A DNA stretch of 55,218 nt from a virus. Its lineage: Duplodnaviria; Caudoviricetes. The stretch covers positions 1 through 55,218 of the IMG/VR virus record IMGVR_UViG_3300023179_000132, one strand, 5' to 3'. Under the pieces are notes generated by a model. The model was not told where the DNA came from. It saw only the letters and a program-made list of their open reading frames with translations, and did not search any database. The position numbers were made by a program, and so were the translations under genes. Below, piece by piece: positions 3,082-44,154 of the stretch; positions within the stretch are counted from its first letter, which is position 1; every line of letters starts with the position of its first letter.

Positions 3082-3128
3082 AGTGGCTCCCCAGCCTCAT
3101 ACCCCTTCTCTGGGGCTGGGTAGCTACT
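3082..3128 (+). terminator. long hairpin with pyrimidine-rich loop TACCCCTTCTC (H1)
   Basis: 3082-3099 pairs with 3111-3128 (one mismatch, two G-U pairs); the U tail is weak. Confidence 0.55.
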
Positions 3129-3141
3129 CTTGAGGTAAACC

Positions 3142-3396
3142 ATGATTCCTGCAAACCCTCTTTTATATAATTCAATTTCAAGAGCAGAACGCGCAAGGCA
3201 CCACGCCTTTCGAGGAAATAATTTTGCTGCGGCTAAAGGAATTGAAGAGGAGTATGCTAGGATGGGTGGACAATTTGTTCAGTCTATTAATGATGTAGAC
3301 CCTAAGCTTAGAGACTACAGGCAAGAAGAGATAGACAGGCAAAAAAGAAAAGCCGCACAAGAAAAAAGGAAAAAGAAGAATTCGCTTCTTCTCTAA
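3142..3396 (+). CDS. hypothetical basic protein
   Basis: GAGGT RBS; fills the gap before the portal gene. Confidence 0.65.
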   Translation: MIPANPLLYNSISRAERARHHAFRGNNFAAAKGIEEEYARMGGQFVQSINDVDPKLRDYRQEEIDRQKRKAAQEKRKKKNSLLL

Positions 3397-3438
3397 TAGA
3401 GGGCAGACTATGAGACATAATATGGAAGGACGTGAGGC

Positions 3439-5130
3439 ATGAGCATTGACTTTTCGCCACCGTCCTATAGGGCAGCGTCATCCGACTTAACTATTTCCAT
3501 TTCCCCGTTGGGTCTTGTTGAACTTGCAGACGAAGAGTTTGAAGTTCACGGTCCAAGACTTAACCGTTACTCACTTAACTGGGCCATGTATCTTGGCCAC
3601 CACTGGAGCTATCGTCGTGAGATCGGCGAAACCCAGATGGTCTACAACTATTACCGTGCGTTCACGGATTACATTATTAACTTTACTTTTAGCCGCGGCG
3701 TTTCATTCCGTAGCCCTAAAGAAACAGAAGCTATTGTTCCTGACATTCTTAAGAGAGTCTGGGAAGTAGATAATAACAAGCACGCTGTTCTTTGGGAGAT
3801 TGGTCAGCAGGGCGGCGTATCAGGCGATTGCTTTGTTAAGGTCGCATATGAAGAAGCATGGCAAGACAGCACAGGAGCCGTTCATCCTGGTCGTGTAAGA
3901 ATTCTCCCCCTAAACTCATCTTTCTGTTTCCCAGAATTTCATCCACACGATCGTAACCGCCTAATTAGATTTAAGCTAAAGTATCGTTTCTGGGGAACTT
4001 CTATGGAAGGTACTCGCCAGGTATACACCTACACTGAGATCCTCACAGATGACATGATTGAGGAATATATTAATGATGAGTTAATTGACTCACGACCAAA
4101 TCCTCTTGGCGTTATTCCTGTAGTACATATTCCAAACGTTATGGTATCCGGTTCTCCTTGGGGACTTGCAGATTGCCACGACGTTATTGTTCTTAACCGT
4201 AACTATAATGAAGTTGCAACAGATATTGCAGACATCATTAACTACCACGCTGCTCCTGTTACCGTTATCACCGGCGCTAAAGCATCTAACCTTGAGAAAG
4301 GCCCTAAGAAGGTTTGGGGTGGTCTTCCTAAAGACGCTTCCGTATTTAACCTAGAAGGCGGTGGCTCAGGTCTTGCTGGCGCTATTCAATATCTAGAGCT
4401 AGTAAAGCGTGCAATGCACGAAATGATTGGTGTTCCAGAAACAGCGTTGGGACAAACCCAGGCTATTTCTAACACTTCAGGTGTTGCGCTTTCTATTACT
4501 TTCCAGCCATTGATGAATCGCTACCAGCAGAAGATTGTGCAATACGGCAAGGGCCTTGAGATTGTAAACAGCTTGGTAATGCGCACAATTGCATTTAAGG
4601 AACCAGAACTTTTTACTTGGAACCCTAACTTTAACGGACCTATAAAGCAAGACCAGTACCCACAGCTAGATCCCGCGGATCCGCTAACATACCAAACCTT
4701 TGTTACTTTCCCATCTCCGCTACCACTAGACAAGCTTATTGTCTTGAATGAAATTCAAACTATGATGAGTATGAATCTTGAAAGCCGTGAAGGTGCACTA
4801 CGTCGACTAGGCGAAGAGTTCCCGAATGAAAAGCTTGCTGAAATTCGTGCTGAACTTATTGATGACGCTAAGTCTGATGGTGCTCTTAACTTGCTTAAGG
4901 GACAGATCAACTCAGCAATTATGTCTCTTACTGGCATGATGCCTGATGGCACTCCTGCTGGTATGTCTCCTGCTGGTGGAGCGCCTGGTGAAGAAGGCGG
5001 CGCACCTGCTGGCCCTACACCGTTTGAACAACAGACCATAGCAATGTTGCAGAGTGATCTTGTTACTAAAGCATACGGAACTAAAATCCCGCAAAGGAGA
5101 GGCCCGAACGCTGACGAAAGTCACGTTTAA
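3439..5130 (+). CDS. portal protein (SPP1 gp6-like)
   Basis: 563 aa, between terL and scaffold; motifs NPLGVIPVVHIPN...WG.AD and N.SGVAL.I.F.PL are typical of this portal family. Confidence 0.9.
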   Translation: MSIDFSPPSYRAASSDLTISISPLGLVELADEEFEVHGPRLNRYSLNWAMYLGHHWSYRREIGETQMVYNYYRAFTDYIINFTFSRGVSFRSPKETEAIVPDILKRVWEVDNNKHAVLWEIGQQGGVSGDCFVKVAYEEAWQDSTGAVHPGRVRILPLNSSFCFPEFHPHDRNRLIRFKLKYRFWGTSMEGTRQVYTYTEILTDDMIEEYINDELIDSRPNPLGVIPVVHIPNVMVSGSPWGLADCHDVIVLNRNYNEVATDIADIINYHAAPVTVITGAKASNLEKGPKKVWGGLPKDASVFNLEGGGSGLAGAIQYLELVKRAMHEMIGVPETALGQTQAISNTSGVALSITFQPLMNRYQQKIVQYGKGLEIVNSLVMRTIAFKEPELFTWNPNFNGPIKQDQYPQLDPADPLTYQTFVTFPSPLPLDKLIVLNEIQTMMSMNLESREGALRRLGEEFPNEKLAEIRAELIDDAKSDGALNLLKGQINSAIMSLTGMMPDGTPAGMSPAGGAPGEEGGAPAGPTPFEQQTIAMLQSDLVTKAYGTKIPQRRGPNADESHV

Positions 5131-5137
5131 TTAAAGA

Positions 5138-5173
5138 GTTTAGGCTGACATGAATATTAATTTATGGTGGTCT
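5138..5173 (+). promoter_or_regulatory. candidate late promoter of the scaffold-capsid operon
   Basis: GTTTA-GGCT-GACA-N17-TGGTCT; the -10 is a weak match. Confidence 0.5.
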
Positions 5174-5250
5174 ATATACATAACAAATCCGCAGGTCAAT
5201 CGTGCTACTAAATTGGAAAACGACCTAACTAACACAAAGGAATAAACGCT

Positions 5251-6015
5251 ATGTCAAACATAGGAGAAAGCGACGTATTAGGCGTCGAAAATCAATTCAT
5301 TGAGCAGAATGATGAGTCTACTTCTCAAGAGGCGGCATTTGCAGAAGAAGTTGCAAAAGCTTACACAGAAGCAGATCTTCAAAAAGTTCGCGAACAGGAA
5401 AAGTCCAAGCTCTACCCTCAGATTGAATCTCTGAAGGAAGAACTTAATGTTCTTAAGCAAGATCGTGAGTCTCGTCTTGAAGAAGAGGCACGCTTGCGGG
5501 CAGAAGCTGAAGCTGAGGCTAAACGCCTTGCTGAAGAAGAAATGGATGTTCGAGAGCTACTCAGTAAGAAAGAACAAGAATTTGAAGCACGCTTAGAAGA
5601 AGAGCGTTTAGAACGCGAAAAGGCATTTGCCCTTCTTGAACGTGAGCGTCACTTCAGCGAACTTCAGACTTACCGGAATTCACGCCTTGAGCAAGAGCGT
5701 GATAATATTATTCCTGAGCTGATCGACCTAATTGCAGGAGAAACTCCTGAAGAAGTTGAGAACAGTATTGCAGGACTCAAGGAGCGTTCCGCACGCATTC
5801 TTGAATCTGCCCAGCAGGCGATGTCGTCAGCTCGGCGTGAAATGGCGGGGAGCCGTATTACGTCTCCTGCGTCAGGACCCCTGGACAACAATTCGGACCA
5901 AAAATCGTTCACGGCAGAGCAGATTGCCGCCATGTCGGTGAGTGAGTACGCCAAATACCGTGGGAAGCTACTTGGTCAAGCAGCTTCTGATCGCGGCAAG
6001 GGTCTATTCGGGTAA
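5251..6015 (+). CDS. capsid scaffolding protein
   Basis: Acidic coiled-coil protein just upstream of MCP, with the C-terminal coat-binding-type motif FTAEQIAAMSVSEYAKYR. Confidence 0.85.
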   Translation: MSNIGESDVLGVENQFIEQNDESTSQEAAFAEEVAKAYTEADLQKVREQEKSKLYPQIESLKEELNVLKQDRESRLEEEARLRAEAEAEAKRLAEEEMDVRELLSKKEQEFEARLEEERLEREKAFALLERERHFSELQTYRNSRLEQERDNIIPELIDLIAGETPEEVENSIAGLKERSARILESAQQAMSSARREMAGSRITSPASGPLDNNSDQKSFTAEQIAAMSVSEYAKYRGKLLGQAASDRGKGLFG

Positions 6016-6059
6016 TACCAAATTTAAACATTCAACTACTCTATTAAGGAGAATACGAC

Positions 6060-7172
6060 ATGGCGTCGTCCATTACCGGAACCGGAAATCTTGCCGGTTC
6101 ACCAACAGCGTATTCTGGCTCAAACAGCCAGCTAACGCAGTCAATCCAGACGATCTGGTCAAAGGAAATCCTTTTCCAGTCAATGCCAATCCTTCGCTTC
6201 GAACAGTTCGCTGTTAAGAAGACCGAACTTGGTGTTGCTCCTGGTCTCCAGATCAACTTCATGCGTTACAACAACCTTGGTGCTGCTTCAGCCCTGGTTG
6301 AAGGTGTACGTATGTCAACCAGTGCACTAACTGCACAACAGTTCTCAATCACCGTTGCTGAGCATGGCTACGCAATCGCTGTTTCTGAACTTCTACTAAA
6401 TGCTTCCTTCGATGATGTTATGGCTTCTGCTTCACGTCTTCTAGGTCGCAACATGGCGCTGTACCTTGATGGCCAGGCTCGCGATACCCTTATGGGCGCA
6501 TCTTCCGTAATCTACGGTGAAAAGCGTTCAACCACCGGTATCAACAACTGGTACGAATACGGTACAACTCCATCTGCAGCTAACCTTAACGATGGCAATA
6601 CCGCTGATGAATATGCATCACGCGTTGCTATGGATGGTGCTTACTACCTAAGCCCACACACCGTTAAAGATGCTGTGGAAACCCTTGCAACCAAGAACAT
6701 TCCAAGACTAGGCGAGACCTACGTTGCGTTCGTTCACCCACACCAGAGCCGTCGTCTACGCGACAATCCTGAATTCATTGAAGTAACGAAGTACGCCGCT
6801 CCAGGTAACTTCATGCTTGGTGAAATCGGTCGTTTGTACGACACCGTGTTCATTGAGACCACTCAGGTTCAGAAGGTAGCCGGTGGTGCTGGTACTAACT
6901 ACGTTGGTGACCAGACCTACGCAACCCCTCAGGGTGTATCAACCGGCGGTGGCTACACCACCCCAGTTACCAAGTACGGTGCAGGTAGCGCAGATCGTTA
7001 CTCAGCAATCTTCATTGGTGACAACGCTTTCGGTCACGCTATTTCACTTCCTGTGGAATTGCGCGATGGTGGTATTCTAGACTTCGGTCGTGAGCATGCT
7101 TTGGCATGGTACTCGATCTACGGTCTAGGCTTGATCACCGATCAGTCTGTAGTTATCGCAGAAACCAACTAA
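6060..7172 (+). CDS. major capsid protein (N4-gp56-like, HK97 fold)
   Basis: LRFEQFA, L.EGV, YVAFVHPHQSRRLR, GEIGRLYD..FIET and DFGRE motifs; strong AAGGAG RBS; strong codon bias. Confidence 0.95.
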   Translation: MASSITGTGNLAGSPTAYSGSNSQLTQSIQTIWSKEILFQSMPILRFEQFAVKKTELGVAPGLQINFMRYNNLGAASALVEGVRMSTSALTAQQFSITVAEHGYAIAVSELLLNASFDDVMASASRLLGRNMALYLDGQARDTLMGASSVIYGEKRSTTGINNWYEYGTTPSAANLNDGNTADEYASRVAMDGAYYLSPHTVKDAVETLATKNIPRLGETYVAFVHPHQSRRLRDNPEFIEVTKYAAPGNFMLGEIGRLYDTVFIETTQVQKVAGGAGTNYVGDQTYATPQGVSTGGGYTTPVTKYGAGSADRYSAIFIGDNAFGHAISLPVELRDGGILDFGREHALAWYSIYGLGLITDQSVVIAETN

Positions 7173-7183
7173 TCAAGACCCCC

Positions 7184-7213
7184 GAGAGGGGGCGCAAGCC
7201 CCCTCTCATCTTT
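7184..7213 (+). terminator. intrinsic terminator/hairpin after MCP
   Basis: GAGAGGGGGC-GCAA-GCCCCCTCTC, a 10-bp stem with a GNRA loop, followed by ATCTTT. Confidence 0.8.
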
Positions 7214-7250
7214 ATAACAAATATCGAGATATTCATTAGGAGAATACATC

Positions 7251-7622
7251 ATGGCTGGAAAAGCTAAAGTTGCTGACACAACAGGTCGTCAGCGCGAGCA
7301 ATTAATTAAGGAACAGGCCGAAGAACAGGCCCGTCGTTCTGAAGAAATTACTATGGCAACTGCCGTAGCTAAAGAAAAGTTGGACAATGAGGTTGTAGAT
7401 CTTTCTACCCCACAAGCAGTTCCAACAGTTATAGATGAAGTAGAAAGCGTCGGAGTAGATCTTGCCGACAACACCACCGTTATTCGTGTAGCAGAAGACC
7501 TAGACATGGTAACTATTGGTGCAGGCAACAATTACAGTTTTAAAGCTGGTCAGAAGTATCGAGTATCAAAGAGCGTAGCTCGTCACCTTCAAGATAAGGG
7601 ATACTTGTACGATCGTATTTGA
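7251..7622 (+). CDS. hypothetical head-associated protein
   Basis: AGGAG RBS; immediately follows MCP. Confidence 0.8.
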   Translation: MAGKAKVADTTGRQREQLIKEQAEEQARRSEEITMATAVAKEKLDNEVVDLSTPQAVPTVIDEVESVGVDLADNTTVIRVAEDLDMVTIGAGNNYSFKAGQKYRVSKSVARHLQDKGYLYDRI

Positions 7623-7639
7623 TCAGTTTTAGTTAGGCC

Positions 7640-7684
7640 GCCCGCATCCACGACCGCCCTCCCGTGGGTGCGGGCTTCTCTTTT
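7640..7684 (+). terminator. intrinsic terminator with anti-SD-like loop ACCGCCCTCC (H2)
   Basis: 13-bp stem (7640-7652/7663-7675), 10-nt loop, TTCTCTTTT tail. Confidence 0.75.
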
Positions 7685-7716
7685 AGGCAGATTAATTCAT
7701 TAATTGTATAGATAAT
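7681..7716 (+). promoter_or_regulatory. candidate late promoter
   Basis: TTTTA-GGCA-GATT-N17-GATAAT. Confidence 0.55.
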
Positions 7717-7748
7717 GAATTAGATAATAGTTAACAAAGGATACTTGC

Positions 7749-8882
7749 GTGGCAACTATTGCAGACCTATCAAATAGACTTAGAAATGAACTTGGTGACA
7801 TTGGTAAAACCTTTGTTGAAACCTTTTTGGGAGATGGCTCAACTAAAAGATTTACCCTTTCTCACTACCCAGTAAATGGTGCAGACCTTAAAGTTATTTC
7901 AGGAACTACGGACGTATATGCCGTAGACCCTGCCCAAGTAACTGTTAAATCGGGGTCTACAGATATCTCTAGTACGTCAACTATTGAAGAGCATACAGGC
8001 GTTTTGACCCTTGCTACAGCCCCATCTACTAGCACAATAATCACTGTAGCGGGAAGATATTACCGTTATTTTACAGACGCTGAGATTGAAAACTACATTA
8101 ATATTGCATTTACTCAGCATGCGGGCACAGAAACTAGCCCATACGGTTCTAGAGTTACTTTAGCCAATCTCCCAGTAGTTGAGGAATACCCAGTTATTCT
8201 TTTGGCGGCTACTATGGCTTTGTTTACGTTGGCTACTGATTCTGCGTATGACATTGACATCATGGCTCCAGACGGCGTCCACATCCCTAGAGCACAGCGC
8301 TATGGGCAGCTTATGGAACTTATCCAGGTTCGTAAAGAGCAGTACCGTGAACTATGTACCCTTCTAAACGTTGGCCTACATCGTATTGAAGTTGCTACAC
8401 TTCACAAGATATCTACCCGTACAAATCGTTATGTTCCTGTATACAAGCCGCAAGAATTGGACGATGCTTCTCGTCCACAGCGCCTGCACGTTCCTGTTCC
8501 AAACTATATGGATCAGACTCCAGCAACTGTGGCTACTTACGACATATTCTTATATCGTGGAGACTCTTACCAGTTAGACCTCGACTTCCCATTCAGCTTA
8601 GATGGCTACACGCTTCTATCGCAAATTCGTGCATACTCTGGGGCTCTTTTAGTACTGGCAACTTTTGTTATCACAGTTACTGACAGCGCTAACGGTAAGG
8701 CAACTTTACAGCTTACAAGTGACCAGACTAAGAATCTACCAAGTCGTGCTATCTGGGATATTCAAATAACATCAAATACAGATCCTAATTACCAGCTAAC
8801 CCACCTAAAGGGCGCGGTAATTACTGAGGATCAAGTTACAAATGTTAATAATGACCCATATGCTCCAGGGTGGCAAGGATGA
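7749..8882 (+). CDS. head-tail adaptor/neck protein with extra beta-sandwich domains
   Basis: Adaptor-like helices (LRNELGD...YFTDAEIENYI); C-terminal YRGDSY..D...GYT..SQIR...G.ATLQLTSDQT..L...WDIQ resembles BppU-type Ig-like domains. Confidence 0.7.
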   Translation: MATIADLSNRLRNELGDIGKTFVETFLGDGSTKRFTLSHYPVNGADLKVISGTTDVYAVDPAQVTVKSGSTDISSTSTIEEHTGVLTLATAPSTSTIITVAGRYYRYFTDAEIENYINIAFTQHAGTETSPYGSRVTLANLPVVEEYPVILLAATMALFTLATDSAYDIDIMAPDGVHIPRAQRYGQLMELIQVRKEQYRELCTLLNVGLHRIEVATLHKISTRTNRYVPVYKPQELDDASRPQRLHVPVPNYMDQTPATVATYDIFLYRGDSYQLDLDFPFSLDGYTLLSQIRAYSGALLVLATFVITVTDSANGKATLQLTSDQTKNLPSRAIWDIQITSNTDPNYQLTHLKGAVITEDQVTNVNNDPYAPGWQG

Positions 8883-10213
8883 CAGATACAGTTATTATTA
8901 GCCCCAACACCCCAGACACTGTAATAGTTGGTGCTGGATCCGGGGGGGCTAAAGGAGCTTCAGGCGTAGTTAATGTTAATAGTCCTATTGTTAACACCGG
9001 GAGTTTAACTTCTGCAATTTTAAGTCTTAATTCATCTAGTGCTAATACCCCAAGCTATGTAGTTCAGCGTGACGCTTCAGGTAATTTTTCTGCTGGGGCT
9101 ATTACTGCAAGCTTGTTAGGCAATGCTGCAACGGCCACAAAACTTGTTACTGCTAGAACTATTAATGGAACTCTTTTTGATGGCACAGCTAATATTAATG
9201 TAACTGCCGATCCAAATGCTCACGGTGGCACACATGTCTTGGGCTCTACTGATGTTAGTTATATAAATACCGGGCAAATAACTGCTGGAGTTCTTGGAGT
9301 TACTCGAGGCGGTACTGGGGTTACTACATCAACTGGCACGGGCTCTAATGTACTAAGCGACTCTCCTACGTTTACAGGCACTCTTGCACTCCCCTCTACT
9401 ACTTCTATTGGCAACGTTTCTGCCACAGAACTTGGGTATGTTGACGGAGTAACATCCTCGATCCAGAATCAGATTGATTCTAAAATTGCTAAAGCTGGTG
9501 GCACATTTACTGGCGCAGTCACCATTAGCGATGCTACTCAATCAACTAGCTACAGCACAGGCTCCCTAATTCTTTCTGGTGGTCTTGGAGTAGCTAAAAA
9601 CTTATATGTCCAAGGTAATGTAGACATTACTGGAAACATTAATATTAATGGTCAGATTACCGGTAGCTTGACCCAAATTGATGTAACTAACCTAAATGTT
9701 ACTGACTCTCTAATTTATTTAGGCAGCGGTAATCTTACCTCTGACTCTATTGACATTGGATTTTACGGTGCTTACCGACCTGCTGGTGATACTAGTGGCC
9801 ATAAGCATACTGGTCTTATTCGCGACCATAATGACAGCGGTATATGGAAGCTTGTGTCTGGAGGTCCTGAATCTGACTCAAATGATGTTGATTTTGGCAC
9901 TAATGATGCAAATGTTAATTTTGATCAATTAAAACTAAGATCATTCATAGTTACTGATGCAAGCACTACTCGTACAAATTTAGGACTAACTATTGGCACT
10001 AATGTACAGGCCTATAGTGCTGCTCTACAGGGAATTAGTGCTCTAGGTAATGGCACTGGCGTATTAAAGAATGCGGCAGGTACTTGGTCATACGATACAG
10101 CGATTTATGACACAATTGTATCTGCTACTGCGCCTGCGACAACAGCGAATGTTTTTTGGGTTGATACTGCTAGCACAAATACTATTGCAGCTATATTTGG
10201 AGGTACACCTTGA
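8879..10213 (+). CDS. fibre/whisker protein
   Basis: G/S/T-rich, with fibre motifs VQRDASGNFSAG.ITA, GNAATATKL.TARTING..FDGTANI, GVTRGGTG and TELGYVDGVTSSIQ.Q. The ATG overlaps the previous TGA. Confidence 0.8.
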   Translation: MTDTVIISPNTPDTVIVGAGSGGAKGASGVVNVNSPIVNTGSLTSAILSLNSSSANTPSYVVQRDASGNFSAGAITASLLGNAATATKLVTARTINGTLFDGTANINVTADPNAHGGTHVLGSTDVSYINTGQITAGVLGVTRGGTGVTTSTGTGSNVLSDSPTFTGTLALPSTTSIGNVSATELGYVDGVTSSIQNQIDSKIAKAGGTFTGAVTISDATQSTSYSTGSLILSGGLGVAKNLYVQGNVDITGNININGQITGSLTQIDVTNLNVTDSLIYLGSGNLTSDSIDIGFYGAYRPAGDTSGHKHTGLIRDHNDSGIWKLVSGGPESDSNDVDFGTNDANVNFDQLKLRSFIVTDASTTRTNLGLTIGTNVQAYSAALQGISALGNGTGVLKNAAGTWSYDTAIYDTIVSATAPATTANVFWVDTASTNTIAAIFGGTP

Positions 10214-11633: not shown

Positions 11634-11649
11634 AAGATAAGAGACTAAC

Positions 11650-34983: not shown

Positions 34984-35000
34984 ATATCTAGGAGGGCTAG

Positions 35001-35909
35001 ATGATTGATCCTGCACCATTGCTGGATTCTAAACTATCGCTCCGTGCTAAAGGCATTTGGGGCCTTTACATGGCAGCAGGCAAAGCGCTTAGTGCTGCTG
35101 AAATATATCCATTAGTGCCTGAGGGCCGTGATGCGGTGCGTAAAGCTGTGCGCGAATTAATATCTGCAGGCTATGTTTCCGAGGTAAGTTTTAGGACTGA
35201 AAACGGTCAGTGGTCTTACCAGCTACAGGTTACCCAGGCCTGGTTTACCGGGGACGGATTTTCAGGCACCCTTTTATACGATACAGCTAATAGCTTAGAA
35301 GCTAATAGTACTTCAGTAGAACTTACTAACGTAAGTTCTACTAAAGTATCGGGCGTGCCGCCCGAGGAAGAGGAATATGTTGAAATGAGTTGGCCAGGAT
35401 TTGAAGATGAGCCAAAAGTACCTAAGGCAAAGATTGATGACTCAGACTCAGGAGCCATAGGCAAACTGACTGATCCCTTAGACAAAAAGGAAATGCGCAA
35501 GAAGAAATACAAAAAGACTAAGTTCAGTGCAGTTCCGGATAGCATGCTTAGGGGCTCTAGGCCAGAACAAGAGTGGACTACAAACGATTTGGTAGCAGAG
35601 TTCTACGACTTAGTGCGTGGACTAGATAGCTGGGCGCCTAGCCAAGTAAACGGCCAGCAACTAGCGTCCTGGATTAACCAAAAGGTTGGAGAAGGAATCG
35701 CTAGGTATACCGTCTTAAAAGCCATGCGCGGGTTCTTTAACGATCCGCGTTTGACAAAAGACCTAGGTGTAGGGCAACCTTTATGGCGTAGGTTCATTGC
35801 GTACTACCCAACCGTTCACGGAAAGTACGTAAATGACTTACCGGTAGAGTATGCTGATGAAGACTTCCTGAACCATCAGGAGAAGATGCTAAAGCTTTTG
35901 GAGGGCTAA
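35001..35909 (+). CDS. replication initiator-like protein (N-terminal winged HTH)
   Basis: D.KLSL.AKG.W....EGRDAVR.A.REL...GYV; directly upstream of a DnaC-like ATPase; AGGAGGG RBS. Confidence 0.75.
   Translation: MIDPAPLLDSKLSLRAKGIWGLYMAAGKALSAAEIYPLVPEGRDAVRKAVRELISAGYVSEVSFRTENGQWSYQLQVTQAWFTGDGFSGTLLYDTANSLEANSTSVELTNVSSTKVSGVPPEEEEYVEMSWPGFEDEPKVPKAKIDDSDSGAIGKLTDPLDKKEMRKKKYKKTKFSAVPDSMLRGSRPEQEWTTNDLVAEFYDLVRGLDSWAPSQVNGQQLASWINQKVGEGIARYTVLKAMRGFFNDPRLTKDLGVGQPLWRRFIAYYPTVHGKYVNDLPVEYADEDFLNHQEKMLKLLEG
35285..35348. other. candidate replication origin element inside rep: direct repeats plus 18-bp inverted repeat
   Basis: AGCTAATAG twice (35285, 35300); TACTTCAGTAGAACTTAC-TAAC-GTAAGTTCTACTAAAGTA with one mismatch. 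Confidence 0.5.
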
Positions 35910-36592
35910 TGTACGACCTATCTGATTTACGGCCATCGGTGCGCCGGCAGATAAATCTGGCTGGGATACCCCAGCGGTTTATAGGCCTGGAACTAGATGA
36001 CCTAAAGCCGTATGACGGAAATGCCCAAGCTGCAGTAGAAACTTGGATTTCCCTTGTAATTTCTGGGAAAATCATAAAGGCTCAGGGCTCAGTCAAGTGT
36101 GGCAAGGGATTACTTTTAGTCGGCAAGCCAGGACACGGGAAGACTACTCTTGCTAGTGTGGTACTGCAGGAGATCCTCCGGAAGGCTAATCCAGAAGTCT
36201 GGGGCCCACCAGAAACTTCTGTAAAAAACCCAGCACTATTTGTAGATTATCCAAAGTTGTTGCGCATTCAGCAACGATCTTGGAAAGAAGAAGATGGTTC
36301 TGATAGTTACCTAATGGAGCAGATCTACGGTGATGTACCTGGTTCCGATAACATAAGTCTGCTTGTGTTAGACGATCTTGGTAAAGAACATAGGACTGCA
36401 TCCGGGTGGGCTGAAAGCACGTTTGATGCTGTGCTAAGGTCTAGGTACAATGCAGGACTACCGACTATAGTTACAACTAATGTTCCACTTAAAAACTGGG
36501 GCGACGTTTATGGCGAAGCGATGGAAAGTTTTGCACACGAAGCGTTTGTACCCATTAATATAATTTCAACGGAGGGAGACCGCAGGAAATGA
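35909..36592 (+). CDS. DnaC/IstB-like helicase loader ATPase
   Basis: GKPGHGKTT, LLVLDDLGKE, RY...LPTIVTTN. Confidence 0.9.
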   Translation: MYDLSDLRPSVRRQINLAGIPQRFIGLELDDLKPYDGNAQAAVETWISLVISGKIIKAQGSVKCGKGLLLVGKPGHGKTTLASVVLQEILRKANPEVWGPPETSVKNPALFVDYPKLLRIQQRSWKEEDGSDSYLMEQIYGDVPGSDNISLLVLDDLGKEHRTASGWAESTFDAVLRSRYNAGLPTIVTTNVPLKNWGDVYGEAMESFAHEAFVPINIISTEGDRRK

Positions 36593-36891
36593 AGGATAGT
36601 ACAATGGCAAAGCAAGAGTGGCGTACAGTTCAATTTTTTCTATCACCAAGGGGCGTCTTTGAGGTAGAAGTTGATCTAGAAAGCGATAATGTACGTTGTA
36701 CTTGCCCGGGTTACGAAGCACGCAAAGCCTGTAAGCATGTACGCACTGTTAGCGCACGTGCAGAAAAAAATGACGGCGTGTATCCACTAAAGATCTCTTC
36801 ACGTGCTCCAGCGCACGAGAGTGCAAACGCTCTCAATTCACCAGATACGTTTCGTGAATTTGTAATTAAATACGGATACGTAGAGGTTTAG
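36589..36891 (+). CDS. SWIM zinc-finger protein
   Basis: CTCPGY....ACKH. Confidence 0.8.
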   Translation: MKDSTMAKQEWRTVQFFLSPRGVFEVEVDLESDNVRCTCPGYEARKACKHVRTVSARAEKNDGVYPLKISSRAPAHESANALNSPDTFREFVIKYGYVEV

Positions 36892-36894
36892 GGA

Positions 36895-37302
36895 ATGCAA
36901 GGAGGGGACTTAAGTAACGAAATACCTAAGAGGGTTGTAGTAACTTTAGACTGCGTTATTAACAAAGAATTAGTTACTAAAAAACTTCTTGGTGTTATTC
37001 CGCACATAACAGAAGAAATAACTTACGATCGCGGTATGCTTTCTCGTTTCTGGAATTATTCCATGGTAAACGGGTTCATACTAGAATTAGCAGGATTTGG
37101 ATTCTCTCAAAAAGAGATGGAAGAATTCATGGAAGACCTAGATAATTTAGGGACTAATCCATTTCGCTACGCAAAGGCGTATAGGGTAGTTGCAGATCTA
37201 GTGTCAGAATTGCCTTACCGTAATGAGCTAGTATGTGTAATTGACATACCGCCTCGTGCTTTACGATATGGTAGTTGGTACTACGACCTTGGGAGGGTTT
37301 AA
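36895..37302 (+). CDS. hypothetical protein
   Basis: GAGG RBS; coupled to dnaB. Confidence 0.75.
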   Translation: MQGGDLSNEIPKRVVVTLDCVINKELVTKKLLGVIPHITEEITYDRGMLSRFWNYSMVNGFILELAGFGFSQKEMEEFMEDLDNLGTNPFRYAKAYRVVADLVSELPYRNELVCVIDIPPRALRYGSWYYDLGRV

Positions 37303-38525
37303 TGGCTGCGGATAATGAACTCCGGTTAATAAGCCGTGCAATACGTACTCGGGATATAACTAGCATCCTTGAGTACGGATTACAAGATGATTGGTTCTAT
37401 GTAGAAGAGAACCGTGCTGTCTGGAAGTTTATTCGTCAACATTGGGTTAAGTACTCAGAAGTACCTACAGCTGTGACGGTCAAAGATAACTTTCCTACCT
37501 ATCGTCTTTTACAAGTCGACGACTCTATTGAGTATCTGCTTGATCAACTAGTTGAATATCGCAAGCGTCAAAAAGCAATTGAGATTGTACAAGATGCTGC
37601 AGAGGCCATAGCTTCTGGTGACCATGGCGTTGCAATTAGTTCTATGAGCGCCGGGCTTGCAAAGATTCTTGATGAGGGTCTTGGCACTACAAATGACATC
37701 AACCTTAGTAATAATCCGCTAGATCGTTACGACGAGTACCTTGCAGTAAAGACGCGCCCTAACGGTTTGATTGGTATGTCCACCGGATTTACTTTGATTG
37801 ATCAAGCTACAGCAGGGTTGCAGCCGGGCCAGCTTGTTGTGATTATTGCTCCACCAAAGACTGGTAAATCTGTGATTGCATTACAGACCGCAGTTAACTT
37901 GCACGAAGATGGCTTTGTACCTATGTTCCAGTCCTTTGAGATGAGCAACCATGAGCAACAAACTCGTCACGACGCAATGCGCTCTAACATTTCACACGCT
38001 CGCCTTACCCGCGGTGCTTTGAAGACAGACGAAGAAGCCCGCTATCAAAAGGCTCTCAAGCGTATGGAGACCATGCACAACTTCTACCTAACAGATAGCT
38101 CATCGGCAGCAACAATGTCAGGACTTGCTGCTAAGGTAGAGAAACTACAACCAGACGTAGTATTTGTGGACGGTGTGTATCTTATGATTGATGAGATTAG
38201 TGGGGAGCAAAATAATGCTCAGGCACTTACTAACATCACTCGTAACTTGAAGCGCCTAGCACAAAAGATACAAAAACCCATTGTAGTAACTACTCAGGTT
38301 CTTGAGTGGAAGATGAAGAAAGGCCGTGTCTCTGCTGGAGCCATCGGCTACTCATCATCGTTCTTCCAGGACGCTGACGTTATCCTTGCTCTAGAGCGGC
38401 AAGATCCGGAAGATGACTCATCTCGTCTATTTCGTGTCGAAGCCAGCCGTAACTGTGGCAAGGTAGAAGTAGAGTTACTTTGGGATTGGGAAAACGGAAA
38501 GTTCCAAGAATACGCAACACCATAA
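37302..38525 (+). CDS. dnaB: DnaB-like replicative helicase
   Basis: STGF..ID..T.GLQPGQL, APPKTGKS, SFEMS, VVFVDG.YLM, QDADV..AL; start at ATG 37302 after GGAGGG. Confidence 0.92.
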   Translation: MAADNELRLISRAIRTRDITSILEYGLQDDWFYVEENRAVWKFIRQHWVKYSEVPTAVTVKDNFPTYRLLQVDDSIEYLLDQLVEYRKRQKAIEIVQDAAEAIASGDHGVAISSMSAGLAKILDEGLGTTNDINLSNNPLDRYDEYLAVKTRPNGLIGMSTGFTLIDQATAGLQPGQLVVIIAPPKTGKSVIALQTAVNLHEDGFVPMFQSFEMSNHEQQTRHDAMRSNISHARLTRGALKTDEEARYQKALKRMETMHNFYLTDSSSAATMSGLAAKVEKLQPDVVFVDGVYLMIDEISGEQNNAQALTNITRNLKRLAQKIQKPIVVTTQVLEWKMKKGRVSAGAIGYSSSFFQDADVILALERQDPEDDSSRLFRVEASRNCGKVEVELLWDWENGKFQEYATP

Positions 38526-38543
38526 AAACCTAGGAGGGTTACT

Positions 38544-38792
38544 ATGCCAGAGGCACCATCATTTGACGGATCACAGCTGTGTGCTCAAACAGATCCTGAA
38601 ATATTTTTTCCACATCCATCCGATCGAGCAGGCATTGCTGCAGCAAAAGAAATCTGTAATCAATGTCCTTTTATTGAACTTTGTTTGAAGTACGCATTAA
38701 GTGAGCCTTCTATACAAGGTATCTGGGGTGGTACGACTCAGCGTCAACGCGAAACACTACGTTCAAAGCTAAGGAAGATGCAGAATGTTTAA
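38544..38792 (+). CDS. whiB: WhiB-family transcription factor
   Basis: C..TDPE.FFP...AK.IC..CP....C..YAL...GIWGG. Confidence 0.93.
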   Translation: MPEAPSFDGSQLCAQTDPEIFFPHPSDRAGIAAAKEICNQCPFIELCLKYALSEPSIQGIWGGTTQRQRETLRSKLRKMQNV

Positions 38793-39427: not shown

Positions 39428-40398
39428 TACTTACTGACGATAAAGTAAAAGCCGTCCTTGTTAATCTTAATATTGAGATTGAACGTGAACGCGGAGACGA
39501 GATAACTGCTTTATGCCCAGGGCATGAGCTTCGTACCGGCAAGGTAGATCAGAACCCATCATGGTCAATAAATACCGAGACTGGCGTACACCACTGTTTT
39601 TCTTGTGGCTATAAAGGCAATCTTTTAACTCTTGTAGCAGAACAAAAAGAGTTCTACACTGAGTGGAATCGACTAGACCTTGAGGGCGCAAAGGCCTGGT
39701 TACGTCAGCATTCAACTATTGATCTTCCTATGCTTATAAAGCAGATGCAAGAAGTTAAAGACTCTTACATTGTTATTCCAAAGCCAGTGCCAATGAGTGA
39801 AGCACGTCTTGCCTTGTTCTCTCATAGTATTCCTAAGAACGCTTTAGACTCTCGTCTATTATCGCAAGAGTCCTGCAGCAAGTACGGAGTTCTTTGGGAT
39901 ACAGAAAACAGCCGTTGGATATTGCCTATCCGCACTTGGGAAGATAATGACCTAATGGGCTGGCAAGAAAAAGGATATCGTGAGCGTTACTTTAAGAATC
40001 GCCCTACCGGTATAGCTAAGAGTAAGACGTTATTTAACAGCAAAGATACTTCCTATAACAAGCGTATGGTTGTTGTAGAAAGCCCCCTTGATGCCGTGCG
40101 GCTATACGCTGCGGGTATATCAGGAGGTGTAGCCACTTTTGGTACAGCAGTAAGTCCTGAGCAACTACACATCTTACGAAAAGCAGAAGACTTGATTTTT
40201 GCTTTTGACAATGATGATGCCGGACGTACCGCAGCTTTACGTATGCTAGACTTAAGTCGCAAGACAGGTTTTGAATGCAAGTTCTTTAACTATTCTGGGA
40301 TTGACCAGAAAGATATTGGCGGCATGATGGATAACGAGATCTATAAAGGTCTTGAAACTGCAAAACATTGCGTACTTGGCAAAGCCGCAATTCTTTAG
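39424..40398 (+). CDS. DNA primase (CHC2 zinc finger + TOPRIM)
   Basis: CPGH...CFSC; VVESPLDA; AFDNDDAG. Confidence 0.9.
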   Translation: MILTDDKVKAVLVNLNIEIERERGDEITALCPGHELRTGKVDQNPSWSINTETGVHHCFSCGYKGNLLTLVAEQKEFYTEWNRLDLEGAKAWLRQHSTIDLPMLIKQMQEVKDSYIVIPKPVPMSEARLALFSHSIPKNALDSRLLSQESCSKYGVLWDTENSRWILPIRTWEDNDLMGWQEKGYRERYFKNRPTGIAKSKTLFNSKDTSYNKRMVVVESPLDAVRLYAAGISGGVATFGTAVSPEQLHILRKAEDLIFAFDNDDAGRTAALRMLDLSRKTGFECKFFNYSGIDQKDIGGMMDNEIYKGLETAKHCVLGKAAIL

Positions 40399-40407
40399 TG
40401 AGGGTTA

Positions 40408-41967
40408 ATGTTTACAGGGAACTTACATCCATACCAGGTTGAAGCCGTAGATAAGATGTGCGCTCAGGGCCACATGCTTGTAGCTTATGACCTTGGCTTG
40501 GGTAAGACCGTGTTAACAATTGCCGCAATAGAGCGTCTACGTGAAGAGGGAAAGATAGAAGGTCCCGGGTTAGTAATTTGTCTTTCAAGTCTTAAGTACC
40601 AATGGGCTAATGCTATTGATAAGTTTACGGACTATACGTCTTTCCCTGTTGTAATCGATGGAACCCCAAAGCAACGTCAACAGCAATACTCTCAATATAA
40701 AGATTCACAAGTTGACTATATAATTATGAATTATGAGCAAGTAGTTTCTGATTGGGAATTTGTACGAAAGCTGCCTCGAGCTTTTGTTATAGCTGACGAA
40801 GCTACGGCTATTAAAAGCTTTAGGGCTAAGAGGTCTAAAGCTGTAAAGAAATTAAAGTCTCCTTATACGTTTGCTCTTACCGGAACCCCGGTAGAAAACG
40901 GTAAGCCAGAAGAACTCTTTTCAATCATGGAGTTTGTTGATCCTAATGTTTTAGGGCGCTTTGACGTATTTGAAGAACGGCACATAGTCCGCAATTATTT
41001 TGGGGGAATTGAACGGTACAAGAATCTACCGGTACTCCATGAAAAAGTATCAAAAGCATCTGTACGTAAGCGGCAGCAAGACCCAGACGTAGCTCCATAT
41101 CTTCCAGAAGCTATCAATGCTGCTCCTATCTTAATTCCTTTTGACCGACCTACTCAGGGTCTTTACAACAGTATTGTTGATGAGCTATTAGAAGATCTAG
41201 ACGAGGCCATAGCCAATTTCAGTACCCTAAGCCTATTCTCAGAGAACTATGGGGATAAAGAATCTAATGAAATTCGTGGTCGAATTATGTCTAAGCTGGT
41301 TTCCTTGCGCATGCTATGCGATCATCCATTACTTTTACAATCAAGCGCAGAACTATATAACTCAACCAAATTTGGAGTAAAAGGATCTCAGTACGCCTCA
41401 GAACTTTTAGAGCAGGGAAGGCTGCCAAAGACTATAAAAGCTCCTAAACTAGATGTATTGAAGGAGACCGTCGTTGAGTTTCTAGGCTCTAACAGCGACA
41501 ACAAGCTAGTTGTGTTTACTAGCTTTGTTTCAATGACAGAGATCATTAAGAAAGAGCTAGAAGCATTTGGGGCAAACACTTATACCGGTAAGATGAACGC
41601 TAAGGAAAAAGAGTATGCCAAAGTCGATTTTCAGACTAACCCTAATACTCGTATCCTTATTAGTTCTGACGCTGGCGGGTATGGCGTGGATCTGCCTCAG
41701 GCTAACCTACTCATTAATTACGACCTTCCGTGGAATGCGGGATTGGCTACTCAACGAAATGGCCGTATTAAAAGGGCATCTAGTACCTGGGAAAAAGTTG
41801 TAATCCAAGACCTACTTATGCTAGGGTCAATAGAAGAGCGTCAATATGAAATGCTCCAACAAAAATTGTCAGTAGCAGACGCTATTGTTGATGGTGAGGG
41901 CATTGATACTGCCGGAGGGCTAGACTTAACAGTTGGGTCACTTCGACAATTCTTGCACTCAATTTGA
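40408..41967 (+). CDS. SNF2-family helicase
   Basis: LHPYQ, DLGLGKT, ADEAT, LTGTPVEN, SDAGGYGVDL, QRNGRIKR. Confidence 0.93.
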   Translation: MFTGNLHPYQVEAVDKMCAQGHMLVAYDLGLGKTVLTIAAIERLREEGKIEGPGLVICLSSLKYQWANAIDKFTDYTSFPVVIDGTPKQRQQQYSQYKDSQVDYIIMNYEQVVSDWEFVRKLPRAFVIADEATAIKSFRAKRSKAVKKLKSPYTFALTGTPVENGKPEELFSIMEFVDPNVLGRFDVFEERHIVRNYFGGIERYKNLPVLHEKVSKASVRKRQQDPDVAPYLPEAINAAPILIPFDRPTQGLYNSIVDELLEDLDEAIANFSTLSLFSENYGDKESNEIRGRIMSKLVSLRMLCDHPLLLQSSAELYNSTKFGVKGSQYASELLEQGRLPKTIKAPKLDVLKETVVEFLGSNSDNKLVVFTSFVSMTEIIKKELEAFGANTYTGKMNAKEKEYAKVDFQTNPNTRILISSDAGGYGVDLPQANLLINYDLPWNAGLATQRNGRIKRASSTWEKVVIQDLLMLGSIEERQYEMLQQKLSVADAIVDGEGIDTAGGLDLTVGSLRQFLHSI

Positions 41968-41981
41968 TAGTAGTATAGGAT
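41953..41981 (+). promoter_or_regulatory. SigA-type promoter candidate
   Basis: TTGCAC-N17-TAGGAT upstream of the RHH gene. Confidence 0.55.
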
Positions 41982-41993
41982 GTGGAGAGGGCT

Positions 41994-42149
41994 ATGGCAC
42001 AAGGAGACTTAGTGAACAACCAGACCCCGACTAGAACAGTCAGAGTATCTGATGAGCTTTGGAACGCAGCTAAAGAAAAAGCTGCAGAAGAAGGAATCAC
42101 AGTTACTGACGTTCTAATAACTGCATTAGAAGAATTTGTAGAAAGTTAA
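41994..42149 (+). CDS. ribbon-helix-helix DNA-binding protein (51 aa), not in ORF track
   Basis: TPTRTVRVSDELWNAAKEKAAEEGITVTDVLITALEEFV; GGAGAGG RBS. A GTG start at 42012 is also possible. Confidence 0.85.
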   Translation: MAQGDLVNNQTPTRTVRVSDELWNAAKEKAAEEGITVTDVLITALEEFVES

Positions 42150-42166
42150 ACAACTAGGAGGGCAAT

Positions 42167-42616
42167 ATGCCAGAAGTAATTGGTAAAGAAGATCTGCCAA
42201 CAGCAGATGATTTCGGTGTGACTAATCTTGAATCTATGTTCAAAGAGTACGTGCACATCAAAAAGAACATTGATGATTTAACCTCACGTCAAAACATCAT
42301 CAAGAAAGAGCTTCTTTCTTTTGTAGACGCTAACGGCTTAGAAGATGATAAAGGCCACAAGTGGTTTGATATGCCTGCTTATGGCGGTTACGCCGGTATG
42401 CAGAAACAGCGTCGCGTATCTCAGACCTTAGACGAAGAAGCTGCGCAAGAACTACTTCGTGAAAAGGGATTGTCAGCACGTTGCTTCCAGCTAAAGCCAG
42501 TGCTTGATGAAGAAGAAGTTATGGCTTGTTTTTATGAAGGCTTGCTAACAGAAGAGGACATAGATACTATGTTCCCTAAGAAAGTTACAAACGCCTTTTT
42601 GCTTACTAAGGAATAG
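42167..42616 (+). CDS. hypothetical protein with N-terminal coiled coil
   Basis: AGGAGGG RBS; acidic, helical. Confidence 0.8.
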   Translation: MPEVIGKEDLPTADDFGVTNLESMFKEYVHIKKNIDDLTSRQNIIKKELLSFVDANGLEDDKGHKWFDMPAYGGYAGMQKQRRVSQTLDEEAAQELLREKGLSARCFQLKPVLDEEEVMACFYEGLLTEEDIDTMFPKKVTNAFLLTKE

Positions 42617-42620
42617 TCAT

Positions 42621-42746
42621 ATGTCATACATGAAGCGCTACCTTGAAGACAACCCACATATCTGCTGGAATTGTGACAAAGCATTTAAAGAATTACTAGA
42701 CCTAAAAGCACATCAGAGGGAGTACCACGGTGTCGAATCTAACTGA
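42621..42746 (+). CDS. 41-aa single C2H2 zinc-finger microprotein, not in ORF track
   Basis: HICWNCDKAFKELLDLKAHQREYH = C-x2-C-x3-F-x5-L-x2-H-x4-H; AAGGA RBS. Confidence 0.75.
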   Translation: MSYMKRYLEDNPHICWNCDKAFKELLDLKAHQREYHGVESN

Positions 42747-42885
42747 GGAACGCCTTATACAATTAGTCTCTGAAGGACTTAAGGCTTGGGACCCTTTGCT
42801 ATTTGCTCGCACAGAGGATAGTATGGGTGCAGCATTTATAGCCATAGACATATTTAAAAAAGCGATGGAAGGTTCTATTAAGTAA
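42730..42885 (+). CDS. 51-aa hypothetical protein, not in ORF track
   Basis: GAGGGAG RBS, GTG start, TAATG coupling to the next gene. Confidence 0.6.
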   Translation: MSNLTEERLIQLVSEGLKAWDPLLFARTEDSMGAAFIAIDIFKKAMEGSIK

Positions 42886-43361
42886 TGAGTACAGACCCAT
42901 TTGAGGATATCTTCGGATCCCTTGATGAGTTTTACCCAGGCTCTAAGAAGAAACGCCGTCCGGTAGACCCAAAGGTAGAGAGCAAAAAGAAAGCTGCAGA
43001 AGACCAAGATTCTTGGGATTCATCTCCGCAGTTGAAAACTTTACCAAATGGTACTACAGTAGAACTATTCAGCGCAGGCACTTTCGCAAGTGCGTTGGGT
43101 AGGCCACTAGTTACTATACGATTGTGGGAGCGTAAGGGATACATTCCTCGTGCCCCTTATCGACTAAAGTCGATTATAGTAAACGGTGAAAAGAAGCCGG
43201 GCTGGCGCATGTACAGCCGTGCTATGATTGAAAGTGCAATACAAAGCTTTCAATCCAGAAGCCTCCTAGAGGCTCCTCGGATTGATTGGGATCGACATAC
43301 AGACCTCTCTATGGAATTATTTGAGAGCTGGACGAAGATCCACAGCCAAGAAACCGAATAA
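42885..43361 (+). CDS. MerR-like HTH DNA-binding protein
   Basis: FS.G..A.ALGR..VTIRLWERKGYIP...G.R.YS..MI. Confidence 0.8.
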   Translation: MSTDPFEDIFGSLDEFYPGSKKKRRPVDPKVESKKKAAEDQDSWDSSPQLKTLPNGTTVELFSAGTFASALGRPLVTIRLWERKGYIPRAPYRLKSIIVNGEKKPGWRMYSRAMIESAIQSFQSRSLLEAPRIDWDRHTDLSMELFESWTKIHSQETE

Positions 43362-43400
43362 CCAAAAACGCCTTATGGCCTAACAGAAAGTAAGAAACCA

Positions 43401-44084
43401 ATGGTAAACCGCAATACAAACGTCAACTCATACCTAGATGATGAAGTTGACACCTCAGTAGCAGTTAATGACATTTTTGAAACTGAGGATGAAGACGAAG
43501 TAGCAGAACGCTCTTCTGTAGTTCAGGTTGGCTGGGCAGCAGCTAAGAAAGTTGCAGCAAAGGTCAGCAAGTCATACGCATCTGATTTTAAGTTTGAAGA
43601 AGATGTTCAACTCATTAAGTTCCTTTCAGCAGAACCTATGAGTTTCTCACAGCACTGGGTACAGCGCACAGGCAAGAAGTCTTTTGTCTGTCTAGGTACT
43701 TCACAGTGTCCTCTATGCCGTGCAGGTAACAAAGCAGAAAACAAGTTTGCTTTCTCAATTGTTAACTTGATGGAAGAAGAACCACAGGTACAGATGATGA
43801 CCGTAGGTCTTCGTCTTTGTGGTCAGTTAGAAAAGCTGAACAGCGATCCTAAGACCGGTCCTCTAGACCGTATCTTCTGGGCAGTTAGCAAGTCAGGTCA
43901 AGGCACCAAGACTAGCTACTCAATCATGCCAGTTAAGGAACGCGACCTCCCTGAAGATTGGGATCTTGACGCTTCTGAAGTAGCAGAGCTAATCCGTGAT
44001 CTACAGCCACTTGGTCCTGACGCATTACGCATGTCAACCAAGGCAGAGCTTACTGAGATTGCTCGCGAAATTCCAGAAGACTAA
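43401..44084 (+). CDS. single-stranded DNA-binding protein (gp32-like)
   Basis: IKFL...P..F.QHW....K.SFVC...CPLC, K.G.GTKT.Y, acidic termini; upstream of polA. Confidence 0.75.
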   Translation: MVNRNTNVNSYLDDEVDTSVAVNDIFETEDEDEVAERSSVVQVGWAAAKKVAAKVSKSYASDFKFEEDVQLIKFLSAEPMSFSQHWVQRTGKKSFVCLGTSQCPLCRAGNKAENKFAFSIVNLMEEEPQVQMMTVGLRLCGQLEKLNSDPKTGPLDRIFWAVSKSGQGTKTSYSIMPVKERDLPEDWDLDASEVAELIRDLQPLGPDALRMSTKAELTEIAREIPED

Positions 44085-44095
44085 GATCACATCCT

Positions 44096-44143
44096 GTAGG
44101 GTGCTAAGTCTCCCCCTCCTTGGCTTAGCACCCTACTTTCTTT
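44096..44143 (+). terminator. intrinsic terminator/attenuator with anti-SD loop TCCCCCTCCTT (H3) before polA
   Basis: 15-bp stem (44096-44110/44122-44136), TTTCTTT tail, then the AGGAG RBS of polA. Confidence 0.75.
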
Positions 44144-44154
44144 AGGAGAGCAAT

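Follow-up and report, generated by a model that had tools for sequence, protein, structure and literature searches.

Three hairpin families with conserved C-rich, anti-Shine-Dalgarno-like loops at gene ends in a group of uncultured phages

Results and discussion

Three intergenic hairpins with C-rich loops

The linear, 55,218-base viral contig IMGVR_UViG_3300023179_000132 from IMG/VR (Duplodnaviria, Caudoviricetes; its full length is called the window below) has an estimated completeness of about 58% and a G+C content of 42.9%, and was analysed for three strong intergenic hairpins, called H1, H2 and H3. The + strand carries essentially all genes of the window, including a head/packaging module (terminase, portal and major capsid protein) and a replication module (DnaC/IstB-like protein, DnaB-like helicase, primase, SNF2 helicase, a protein resembling single-stranded DNA-binding protein (SSB), family A DNA polymerase and RecA). 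H1 (3076..3133, + strand) begins directly past the stop codon of a head-module gene taken from the open reading frame list (2671..3075, +), the 134-amino-acid product of which has no assigned function and gave no match in PHROG and Pfam searches. Its inner perfect stem spans 3090-3120, with the loop UACCCCUUCUC at 3100-3110 (fold -32.8 kcal/mol, z -4.9), and its outer stem overlaps the GAGG that precedes the ATG at 3142. H2 (7640..7675, +) follows the stop codon of a gene for a 123-amino-acid protein (7251..7622, +), which is itself located 3' of the major capsid gene (6060-7172). It consists of a 13-bp stem and the loop ACCGCCCUCC at 7653-7662 (-25.8 kcal/mol for the hairpin alone; -29 kcal/mol, z -3.25, for a 61-nt fold), and is followed by UUCUCUUUU and then by a 73-nt AT-rich spacer up to a GTG at 7749. 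H3 (44096..44136, +) has a 15-bp stem and the loop UCCCCCUCCUU at 44111-44121 (-27 kcal/mol, z -6.7); it starts 11 nt past the stop codon of the SSB-like gene (43401..44084, +; PHROG 14578, E 1.3e-6) and ends 7 nt before the AGGAG in the ribosome-binding site (RBS) of the family A DNA polymerase gene, which lies directly 3' (44155..46134, +; PHROG 17, E 1.7e-123).

All three hairpins were far more stable than shuffled sequence, and their C-rich loops of 10-11 nt were predicted to be unpaired. Altogether six strong intergenic hairpins were found in the window, the remaining three having tetraloops: a terminator-like hairpin with a GCAA loop right after the major capsid gene (7184..7207, +), which served as an internal contrast, and two further contrasting hairpins with the loops TCCG (52721) and GAAA (54021..54054, +). 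An initial annotation of the same DNA, made from the sequence alone, had described three hairpins with 10-11 nt C-rich loops, as well as ordinary tetraloops in the other terminators (7184, 52722 and 54021), and for the three C-rich hairpins it agreed with what was found in position and in loop sequence. When the window was scanned for hairpins (stem of at least 9, at least 5 G-C pairs, loop of 5-18), the C motif was present in the loops of 3 out of 15 hairpins on the + strand, these being H1-H3, and in none of the 11 on the - strand. The word CCCTCC occurs five times in the 55 kb, and two of these occurrences are the loops of H2 and H3; a chance origin of the C-rich loops of H1-H3 is unlikely.

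Stem covariation and loop conservation among relatives

Relatives were collected from IMG/VR by capsid matches (at least 598, the best 80 of which were used), together with 44 polymerase loci and 22 DnaB loci; related loci carry L-numbers and related genomes G-numbers, the complete relatives being 93-104 kb long. The position of H2 was reached by 70 capsid loci, of which 68 had a hairpin there and 37 a GCCCTC loop. In an alignment of 30 distinct H2 sequences, compensatory double changes were seen in 12 of the 13 base pairs, and 99.0% of the cells paired, compared to 72.9% after shuffling (none of 500 shuffles reached as high a value) and 32-46% in slid controls. The aligned rows had been preselected for a CCTCC-type loop hairpin, so that the pairing is partly a product of that selection, which does not apply to the compensatory changes. 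The loop core, CGCCCUCC or CGCCCTCC, was nearly constant across the 30 sequences. An exact 16-mer of H2, comprising the inner stem and the loop, was found in 97 IMG/VR stretches. In related loci it was enclosed by stems of 12-14 bp at 103 of 111 occurrences, with 23 distinct stems (some contigs being counted twice), and a homologue of the 123-amino-acid protein was encoded upstream at 103 of the 110 occurrences with enough upstream sequence; the eight viral occurrences lacking a stem were unrelated coding sequences. Among 185,579 cellular genomes the 16-mer was present in 85 stretches from unrelated taxa, with a stem of at least 8 bp at one of 80 scanned, which corresponds to chance level and gave no clue to the host.

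The other two families behaved similarly. Homologues of H1 comprised about 13 distinct forms, in which the loop YACCCYUUCUC was kept while 11 of 13 pairs showed compensatory changes. For H3, a hairpin with CCUCC in its loop was located in the 600 nt that precede the polymerase gene at 42 of the 44 polymerase loci, L116 and L117 being the two exceptions, with the loop UCUCAUCUCC. In the 28 distinct H3 hairpins the stem measured 10-19 bp and the loop 9-23 nt, CCUCCU was invariably present in the loop, and the loop-proximal 5' arm had a mean identity of only 0.37. These statistics were obtained with a loop-anchored script that selects perfect stems, and the 100% pairing of the H3 stems is therefore given by construction. 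A MAFFT alignment, in which the loops were misaligned, and a model-based alignment, which included reverse-strand hits of the near-palindromic stems, were excluded from the H3 counts. Where a gene or a tRNA had been inserted (L097, L114, L122 and L098), the H3-type hairpin stayed at the end of the upstream gene; in L098 (2553-2640), a tRNA gene is positioned directly 3' of the H3-type hairpin, between the SSB and polymerase genes.

Hairpins with CCTCC in the loop were strongly biased to one strand: 965 kb of related loci contained 84 in coding orientation and 3 in the opposite one, although CCTCC and GGAGG each occurred 505 times. Each complete relative had only two or three such hairpins, at the positions of H1-H3. 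When mispairs in the interior of the stems were scored strand-neutrally, 10 G.U and no A.C mispairs were counted for H2, and 18 and none, respectively, for the H3-pattern set, which overlaps H2. Judging from these aligned stems, the structure of H2 and H3 is selected in the sense RNA, because the interior mispairs, read on the coding strand, were G.U and in no case A.C. The same asymmetry (10 versus 0 and 18 versus 0) ruled out a reading at the level of DNA, such as a cruciform. The corresponding counts for H1, 5 G.U and 4 A.C, were ambiguous.

Across all families the loops consisted of pyrimidines except for a few A or G at the edges, with the cores YACCCYUUCUC (H1), CGCCCUCC (H2) and CCUCCU(U) (H3). 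Since the same C-rich loop was kept while the stems changed freely, the loops, and not only the stems, are by this comparison under purifying selection across many relatives. That this selection goes beyond what a terminator needs was indicated by the neighbouring hairpin after the capsid gene (the position of 7184), the loops of which were not conserved and had drifted to 28 distinct sequences in 49 distinct hairpins. H1, H2 and H3 thus very probably represent three new covarying RNA motifs with selected, anti-Shine-Dalgarno (anti-SD)-like loops.

Terminator anatomy of H2

A T-rich tail (at least five T in the next 10 nt) was found in 25 of 30 distinct forms of H2, relative to 11 of 28 for H3 and 2 of 11 for H1. 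H2 closes a block resembling a transcription unit, in line with an earlier suggestion that it ends the capsid operon, and in anatomy it looks like the intrinsic terminator of the capsid block. Because of this anatomy, and because sister clades carry plain tetraloop terminators at the same site (for example TTCG; about 31 of the 68 hairpins), H2 may best be seen as a transcript-end or attenuator element to which the C-rich loop is an added feature under selection of its own. More generally, all three hairpins would be structures that end or attenuate transcripts, and the genes before them are probably needed in larger amounts than the gene that follows. These observations are also what would be expected of plain terminators, attenuators or 3' stabilisers, with loops conserved for folding, termination efficiency or nuclease resistance and having no partner at all. 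We consider this quite unlikely, as loops of 10-20 nt are unnecessary for termination, the other terminators of the phage have tetraloops and drifting loops, the loop cores have remained constant while 11-12 of 13 stem pairs have changed, and T-tracts are mostly absent from H1 and H3.

Compared with intrinsic terminators in general, H2 has the G+C-rich stem, the T-tract and the position at an operon end, whereas the loops of such terminators are short (3-8 nt) and unconstrained and those of the H1-H3 families are 9-23 nt with conserved cores; the full H1-H3 hairpins were not listed by a terminator scan with the loop limit set to 3-8. Small regulatory RNAs (sRNAs) derived from 3' untranslated regions offer another comparison, in which a regulatory RNA would take its body from the terminator hairpin and the seed would sit in the terminator loop, the difference from these and from intrinsic terminators being that H1 and most copies of H3 lack a T-tract.

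In the spacer 3' of H2 (7676-7748) and in its homologues in L002-L081, a motif resembling CTGACTAAT or CAGATTAAT recurs past the T-tract, with TAGAT about 15-17 nt further on. The block that follows may have its promoter here; the CTGACTAAT-like candidate was not listed by a sigma-70 scan.

G-rich ribosome-binding sites of the replication genes

GGAGGG precedes the starts at 35001, 35909, 36589, 37302, 38544 and 42167, which are the six sites in front of replication genes that the initial annotation had pointed out; its further claim of an exact 7-nt complement of the H2 loop at three of these RBSs was also borne out. The complement in question, GGAGGGC, which pairs with GCCCUCC in the loop, is located at 34991..34997 (RBS of gene 35001-35909, called 'rep' in the initial annotation, for which a Pfam search returned no family), at 35900..35906 (RBS of the DnaC/IstB-like gene 35909-36592, where relatives mostly have GGAGGA or GGAGGG) and at 42157..42163 (RBS of gene 42167-42616, function unassigned), and occurs also inside genes at 41914 and 49597. 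The remaining sites are GGAGGG at 36571..36576, 12 nt before the ATG of a SWIM-finger gene (36589-36891), GGGAGGG at 37291..37297 for the DnaB-like helicase gene (37302-38525), and GGAGGG at 38533..38538 for a WhiB-like gene (38544-38792), all sites of both kinds in front of genes being on the + strand. The SWIM zinc finger protein has 100 amino acids and is encoded between the DnaC-like and DnaB-like genes, with the RBS GGAGGGAG.

Based on crude gene calls, G-rich SD sequences were present at 8 of 36 replication-side genes in the window and at none of 38 structural genes (p = 0.002, Fisher test). Conservation at the RBSs was counted over the 22 DnaB loci and the window, using the rows with letters at a given site. 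GGAGGGC at the rep RBS was kept in 9 of 15 rows with differing flanks, and GGAGGG at the DnaB RBS in 16 of 23 rows, other clades having GAGGGGAAGG or GAGGAG. At the RBS of gene 42167, 14 of 15 rows had GGAGGG and 7 of 15 GGAGGGC. Close relatives thus retain RBSs of the GGAGGG type at rep, DnaB and gene 42167, with flanks that have changed.

Duplexes of the loops with GGAGGG RBSs were predicted at -13 to -15 kcal/mol. Among the 74 RBSs of the window, those of genes 42167, 35001 and 35909 scored best as predicted partners of H2 (-15.1 to -15.4 kcal/mol, against -13.9 at the 1st percentile for random windows), and nine of the top ten H3 targets belonged to replication-side genes. When the loops of each genome were used against its own RBSs, the rep and DnaB orthologues ranked 3-6 out of 162 in G004, 1-3 out of 166 in G005 and 8-20 out of 152 in G001. 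In G003, where the loops are degenerate and none of eight replication-side orthologues has a G-rich SD, the ranks were 15-99 out of 150. GGAGGG RBSs were therefore the top predicted partners of H2 and H3 in the window and in three of four complete relatives. Clade by clade, the H3 loop and the DnaB RBS fitted each other as CCUCCUCUC with GAGGAG and as CCUUUCUC with GGGGAAGG.

A possible action in trans and its weighing

With these loops and RBSs, the best single mechanism appears to be an action in trans on G-rich RBSs similar to that of the actinobacterial 6C RNA, a proposal which we put forward as possible but somewhat short of probable. The hairpins would survive as 3' ends of mRNAs or as processed fragments, and their exposed loops, which copy the anti-SD core and, in a number of clades, also 12 nt from the tail of actinobacterial 16S rRNA, would base pair without a chaperone to G-rich sequences of SD type, in the way in which 6C uses its C-rich loops to act on the RBSs of panD and dnaB. 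Likely partners would be the GGAGGG-class RBSs of rep, the DnaB-like helicase gene, the WhiB-like gene and gene 42167, and/or host mRNAs. Such pairing would lower the translation of the partners once the hairpin-bearing transcripts had become abundant, and late silencing of replication genes by the hairpins could follow.

Several results weigh against this proposal. The enrichment of G-rich SDs that was seen in the window was weak or absent when relatives were taken one by one (2/20 versus 0/16 in G004, 1/10 versus 0/10 in G002 and 0/8 versus 0/11 in G003). G004, the closest complete relative, has an identical H2 loop but GGAGGG at only one RBS, its rep RBS being GGGGGGC and that of its 42167 orthologue GGAGGAC. 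The median predicted binding did not differ between replication-side and structural RBSs, and any pyrimidine loop pairs somewhat with any purine-rich RBS. The window contained no sequence complementary to the H1 or H2 loop over at least 9 nt, which ruled out a specific long target there, and the conserved H1 loop had no good partner in the window. The co-occurrence of a GCCCUCC loop with GGAGGGC RBSs rests on very few independent lineages, and the plain tetraloop terminators of sister clades at the H2 position point the same way. For the H3 loop and the DnaB RBS, a test of own against cross pairs gave only a borderline P = 0.051 with seven clade representatives, DnaB having been chosen post hoc, and P = 0.006 with 11 related rows, a value inflated by relatedness. 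Finally, H3 ends no more than 25 nt before the polymerase gene begins in 34 of 42 loci, a distance that would suit a role in cis as well.

Under such cis control, the loop of H3 (and of H1) would pair with the SD of the gene 15-25 nt downstream to form a pseudoknot that throttles polymerase translation or couples it to that of SSB, the terminating upstream ribosome reaching the base of the hairpin, 7-14 nt past the stop codon. In addition to the short distance of H3 from the polymerase start, the outer stem of H1 covers part of the GAGG before 3142, and individual relatives provide fitting pairs: the loop of G007 (L273) contains UACCCCUUU, which over 9 nt is exactly complementary to AAAGGGGUA at the polymerase RBS, situated a few bases further downstream, a UCCCC loop faces an AGGGGGA RBS in G006 (L272), and an 11-bp duplex of -15.7 kcal/mol can form in L118. 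However, co-variation between loop and polymerase RBS was not found (-7.92 kcal/mol for own compared to -7.82 for cross pairs, P = 0.32, 25 distinct pairs), and in the clade of the window the local duplex has no more than 4-5 bp (-6.4 to -7.3 kcal/mol) and is less stable than the one with the GGAGGG RBSs elsewhere. There is no gene start within 70 nt of H2, and the hairpin tracks the 3' end of the SSB gene even when the next element is a tRNA gene (L098) or other sequence (L097 and L114). By geometric reasoning, a linker of 7-9 nt spanning a stem of 13-18 bp would make a strained pseudoknot. Altogether, control in cis is regarded as unlikely. Anti-SD sequestration in cis is otherwise established from RNA thermometers, riboswitch expression platforms and rpsO-type pseudoknots, with which H1-H3 share a CCUCC-type sequence near an SD; the phage anti-SD differs in that a very stable hairpin carries it in its loop, whereas in those elements it is in a stem opposite the SD.

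The loops might instead be sites for a phage or host RNA-binding protein, with an antiterminator, a processing factor, SSB or the SpoVS/Alba-like product of 51959-52246 as candidates. Hairpins that are read by proteins typically combine a conserved loop with a variable stem, comparable examples being lambda boxB and the T4 operators for gp43, gp32 and RegA. Each family has its own loop sequence, and H3, between SSB and the polymerase RBS, occupies the same place relative to the SD as the T4 polymerase operator. The SpoVS-like gene is present (Pfam SpoVS, E 5e-26), with 72-84% identity in five complete relatives, and SpoVS has been linked to the Alba DNA/RNA-binding fold in the portion of the literature that was available. 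This explanation is likewise held to be improbable, as the loops have only a pyrimidine or C-run character in common, which would call for loose specificity or for three proteins, and the 9-12 nt that some H3 loops share with the 16S tail would more naturally be a base-pairing mimic.

That identity was established from the 16S 3' ends of three Actinomycetota genomes (none of them the host), which read GGATCACCTCCTTTCTA; the H3 loops of L099, L107 and G001 contain ACCTCCTTTCTA or ACCUCCUUUCUA, which agrees with these 16S ends in all of its 12 nt. It could also mean that the loops are decoys of the 16S tail that soak up a factor binding or cutting the anti-SD, such as a host defence ribonuclease, and the presence of CCUCCU in all H3 loops is compatible with such a role. 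The loops of H1 and H2 are, however, different C-rich words that do not copy the tail, and the H3 loop of the window shares only CCUCCUU with it, with a C-run before. The idea moreover depends on the specificities of toxins known from elsewhere, and no such factor was identified in this analysis. A decoy seems very unlikely.

Comparison with known regulatory RNAs and phage controls

No Rfam family was matched at the gathering score, and the weak hits around H2 and H3 (RatA, mir-1233 and others) were unrelated and far below the cut-offs. The 6C model (RF01066) had no match in the window at E <= 1 and was not among these weak hits. A published study reports that 6C, by way of its C-rich loops, binds to the G-rich RBSs of panD and dnaB and needs no chaperone for this (PMC6486639). 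The likeness to 6C (B11 in M. tuberculosis) lies in the exposed C-rich hairpin loops, the DnaB-like gene of the phage also having a G-rich RBS. In contrast, 6C consists of two adjacent hairpins in a stand-alone sRNA gene and has loops of pure C runs, whereas H1-H3 are single, 4.5 kb and 36 kb apart, abut the ends of protein genes and have CCUCC-type cores with U. Membership in 6C was ruled out by this differing architecture together with the absence of a covariance-model match.

Unpaired C-rich motifs that target SD regions are also known in Firmicutes from RsaE/RoxS and from RNAIII of S. aureus. These resemble the phage loops in the C-rich motif, and differ in belonging to another phylum, in being chromosomal sRNA genes and not phage terminator loops, and in having no Rfam match here. 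In phage T4, the gp43 operator is a hairpin next to the SD, RegA is a translational repressor, and RegB cuts GGAG in early RBSs. The arrangement described here has in common with these controls that a class of early or replication genes is marked by its RBS and that a hairpin is situated immediately 5' of the SD of the DNA polymerase gene, the differences being that the T4 elements are read by proteins, while an RNA-RNA interaction is proposed here, and that the polymerase is of family A. In the parts of the literature that were available on phage RNAs and hairpins, anti-SD loops and actinobacteriophage intergenic stem-loops, no description of such hairpins was found.

If action in trans is extended to its full scope, a widespread group of uncultured freshwater actinophages would have turned a few transcript-end hairpins into chaperone-free riboregulators, with anti-SD-mimic loops from the bulk capsid and SSB transcripts competing with ribosomes for G-rich RBSs, shutting off replication genes late and/or hijacking the host 6C regulon including dnaB. 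This extended version is doubtful. Were it true, the phage would possess a counterpart of T4 RegA/RegB and a temporal switch that are made of RNA alone, embedded in terminators and mimicking the 16S rRNA tail, and the logic of C-rich loops and G-rich RBSs seen in 6C would extend from Actinobacteria to viruses. Apart from any function, three covarying RNA motifs with no Rfam match have been defined, which occur on about 100 or more public phage contigs and mark gene-expression boundaries in this phage group.

Host, cultured relatives and other features

The host of the window phage is probably actinobacterial, and thus of the same phylum as the hosts of 6C, because the window encodes two WhiB-like transcription factors (38544-38792 and 48731-49099; Pfam Whib, E 1e-19 and 3e-19, respectively) and the cultured phages nearest to it are myophages of Streptomyces with a size of about 113 kb (BRock, LuckySocke, Alone3, GiJojo and pSt2308; identity 68% for the capsid protein and 40% for the polymerase). 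The source phage is taken to be an uncultured freshwater phage, of a group whose hosts are freshwater Actinobacteria that are abundant and difficult to culture. Megablast with 6000-9000 as the query gave no matches among cultured phages.

In LuckySocke (OR725497.1), one hairpin with CCUCCU in its loop was found in a scan of the first 50 kb. It is located at 7488-7522, after gene 20 and before tRNA-Asp, and has a G+C-rich stem of 9 bp with a U-rich loop of 17 nt; it is a possible cultured counterpart of the hairpins described here and could serve as a bench system. The hairpin between the SSB and polymerase genes of LuckySocke has the loop AUAGAUUCUUUCUA, without CCUCC.

Three minor features were noted in addition. 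The SSB-like gene of the window has no SD-like sequence before its ATG (43375-43400) and is preceded by an A-rich leader, both of which also apply to G004. The end of the contig (54669-55082) encodes 137 amino acids that include an Arr-ms domain (E 2.4e-8), which is of the rifampin ADP-ribosyltransferase-like kind. The GAAA-tetraloop hairpin recurs on a CAGAGG...CCTTTG stem in G004 (3953-3984), G003 (85827-85800) and G005 (12964-12937), and looks like an ordinary conserved terminator.

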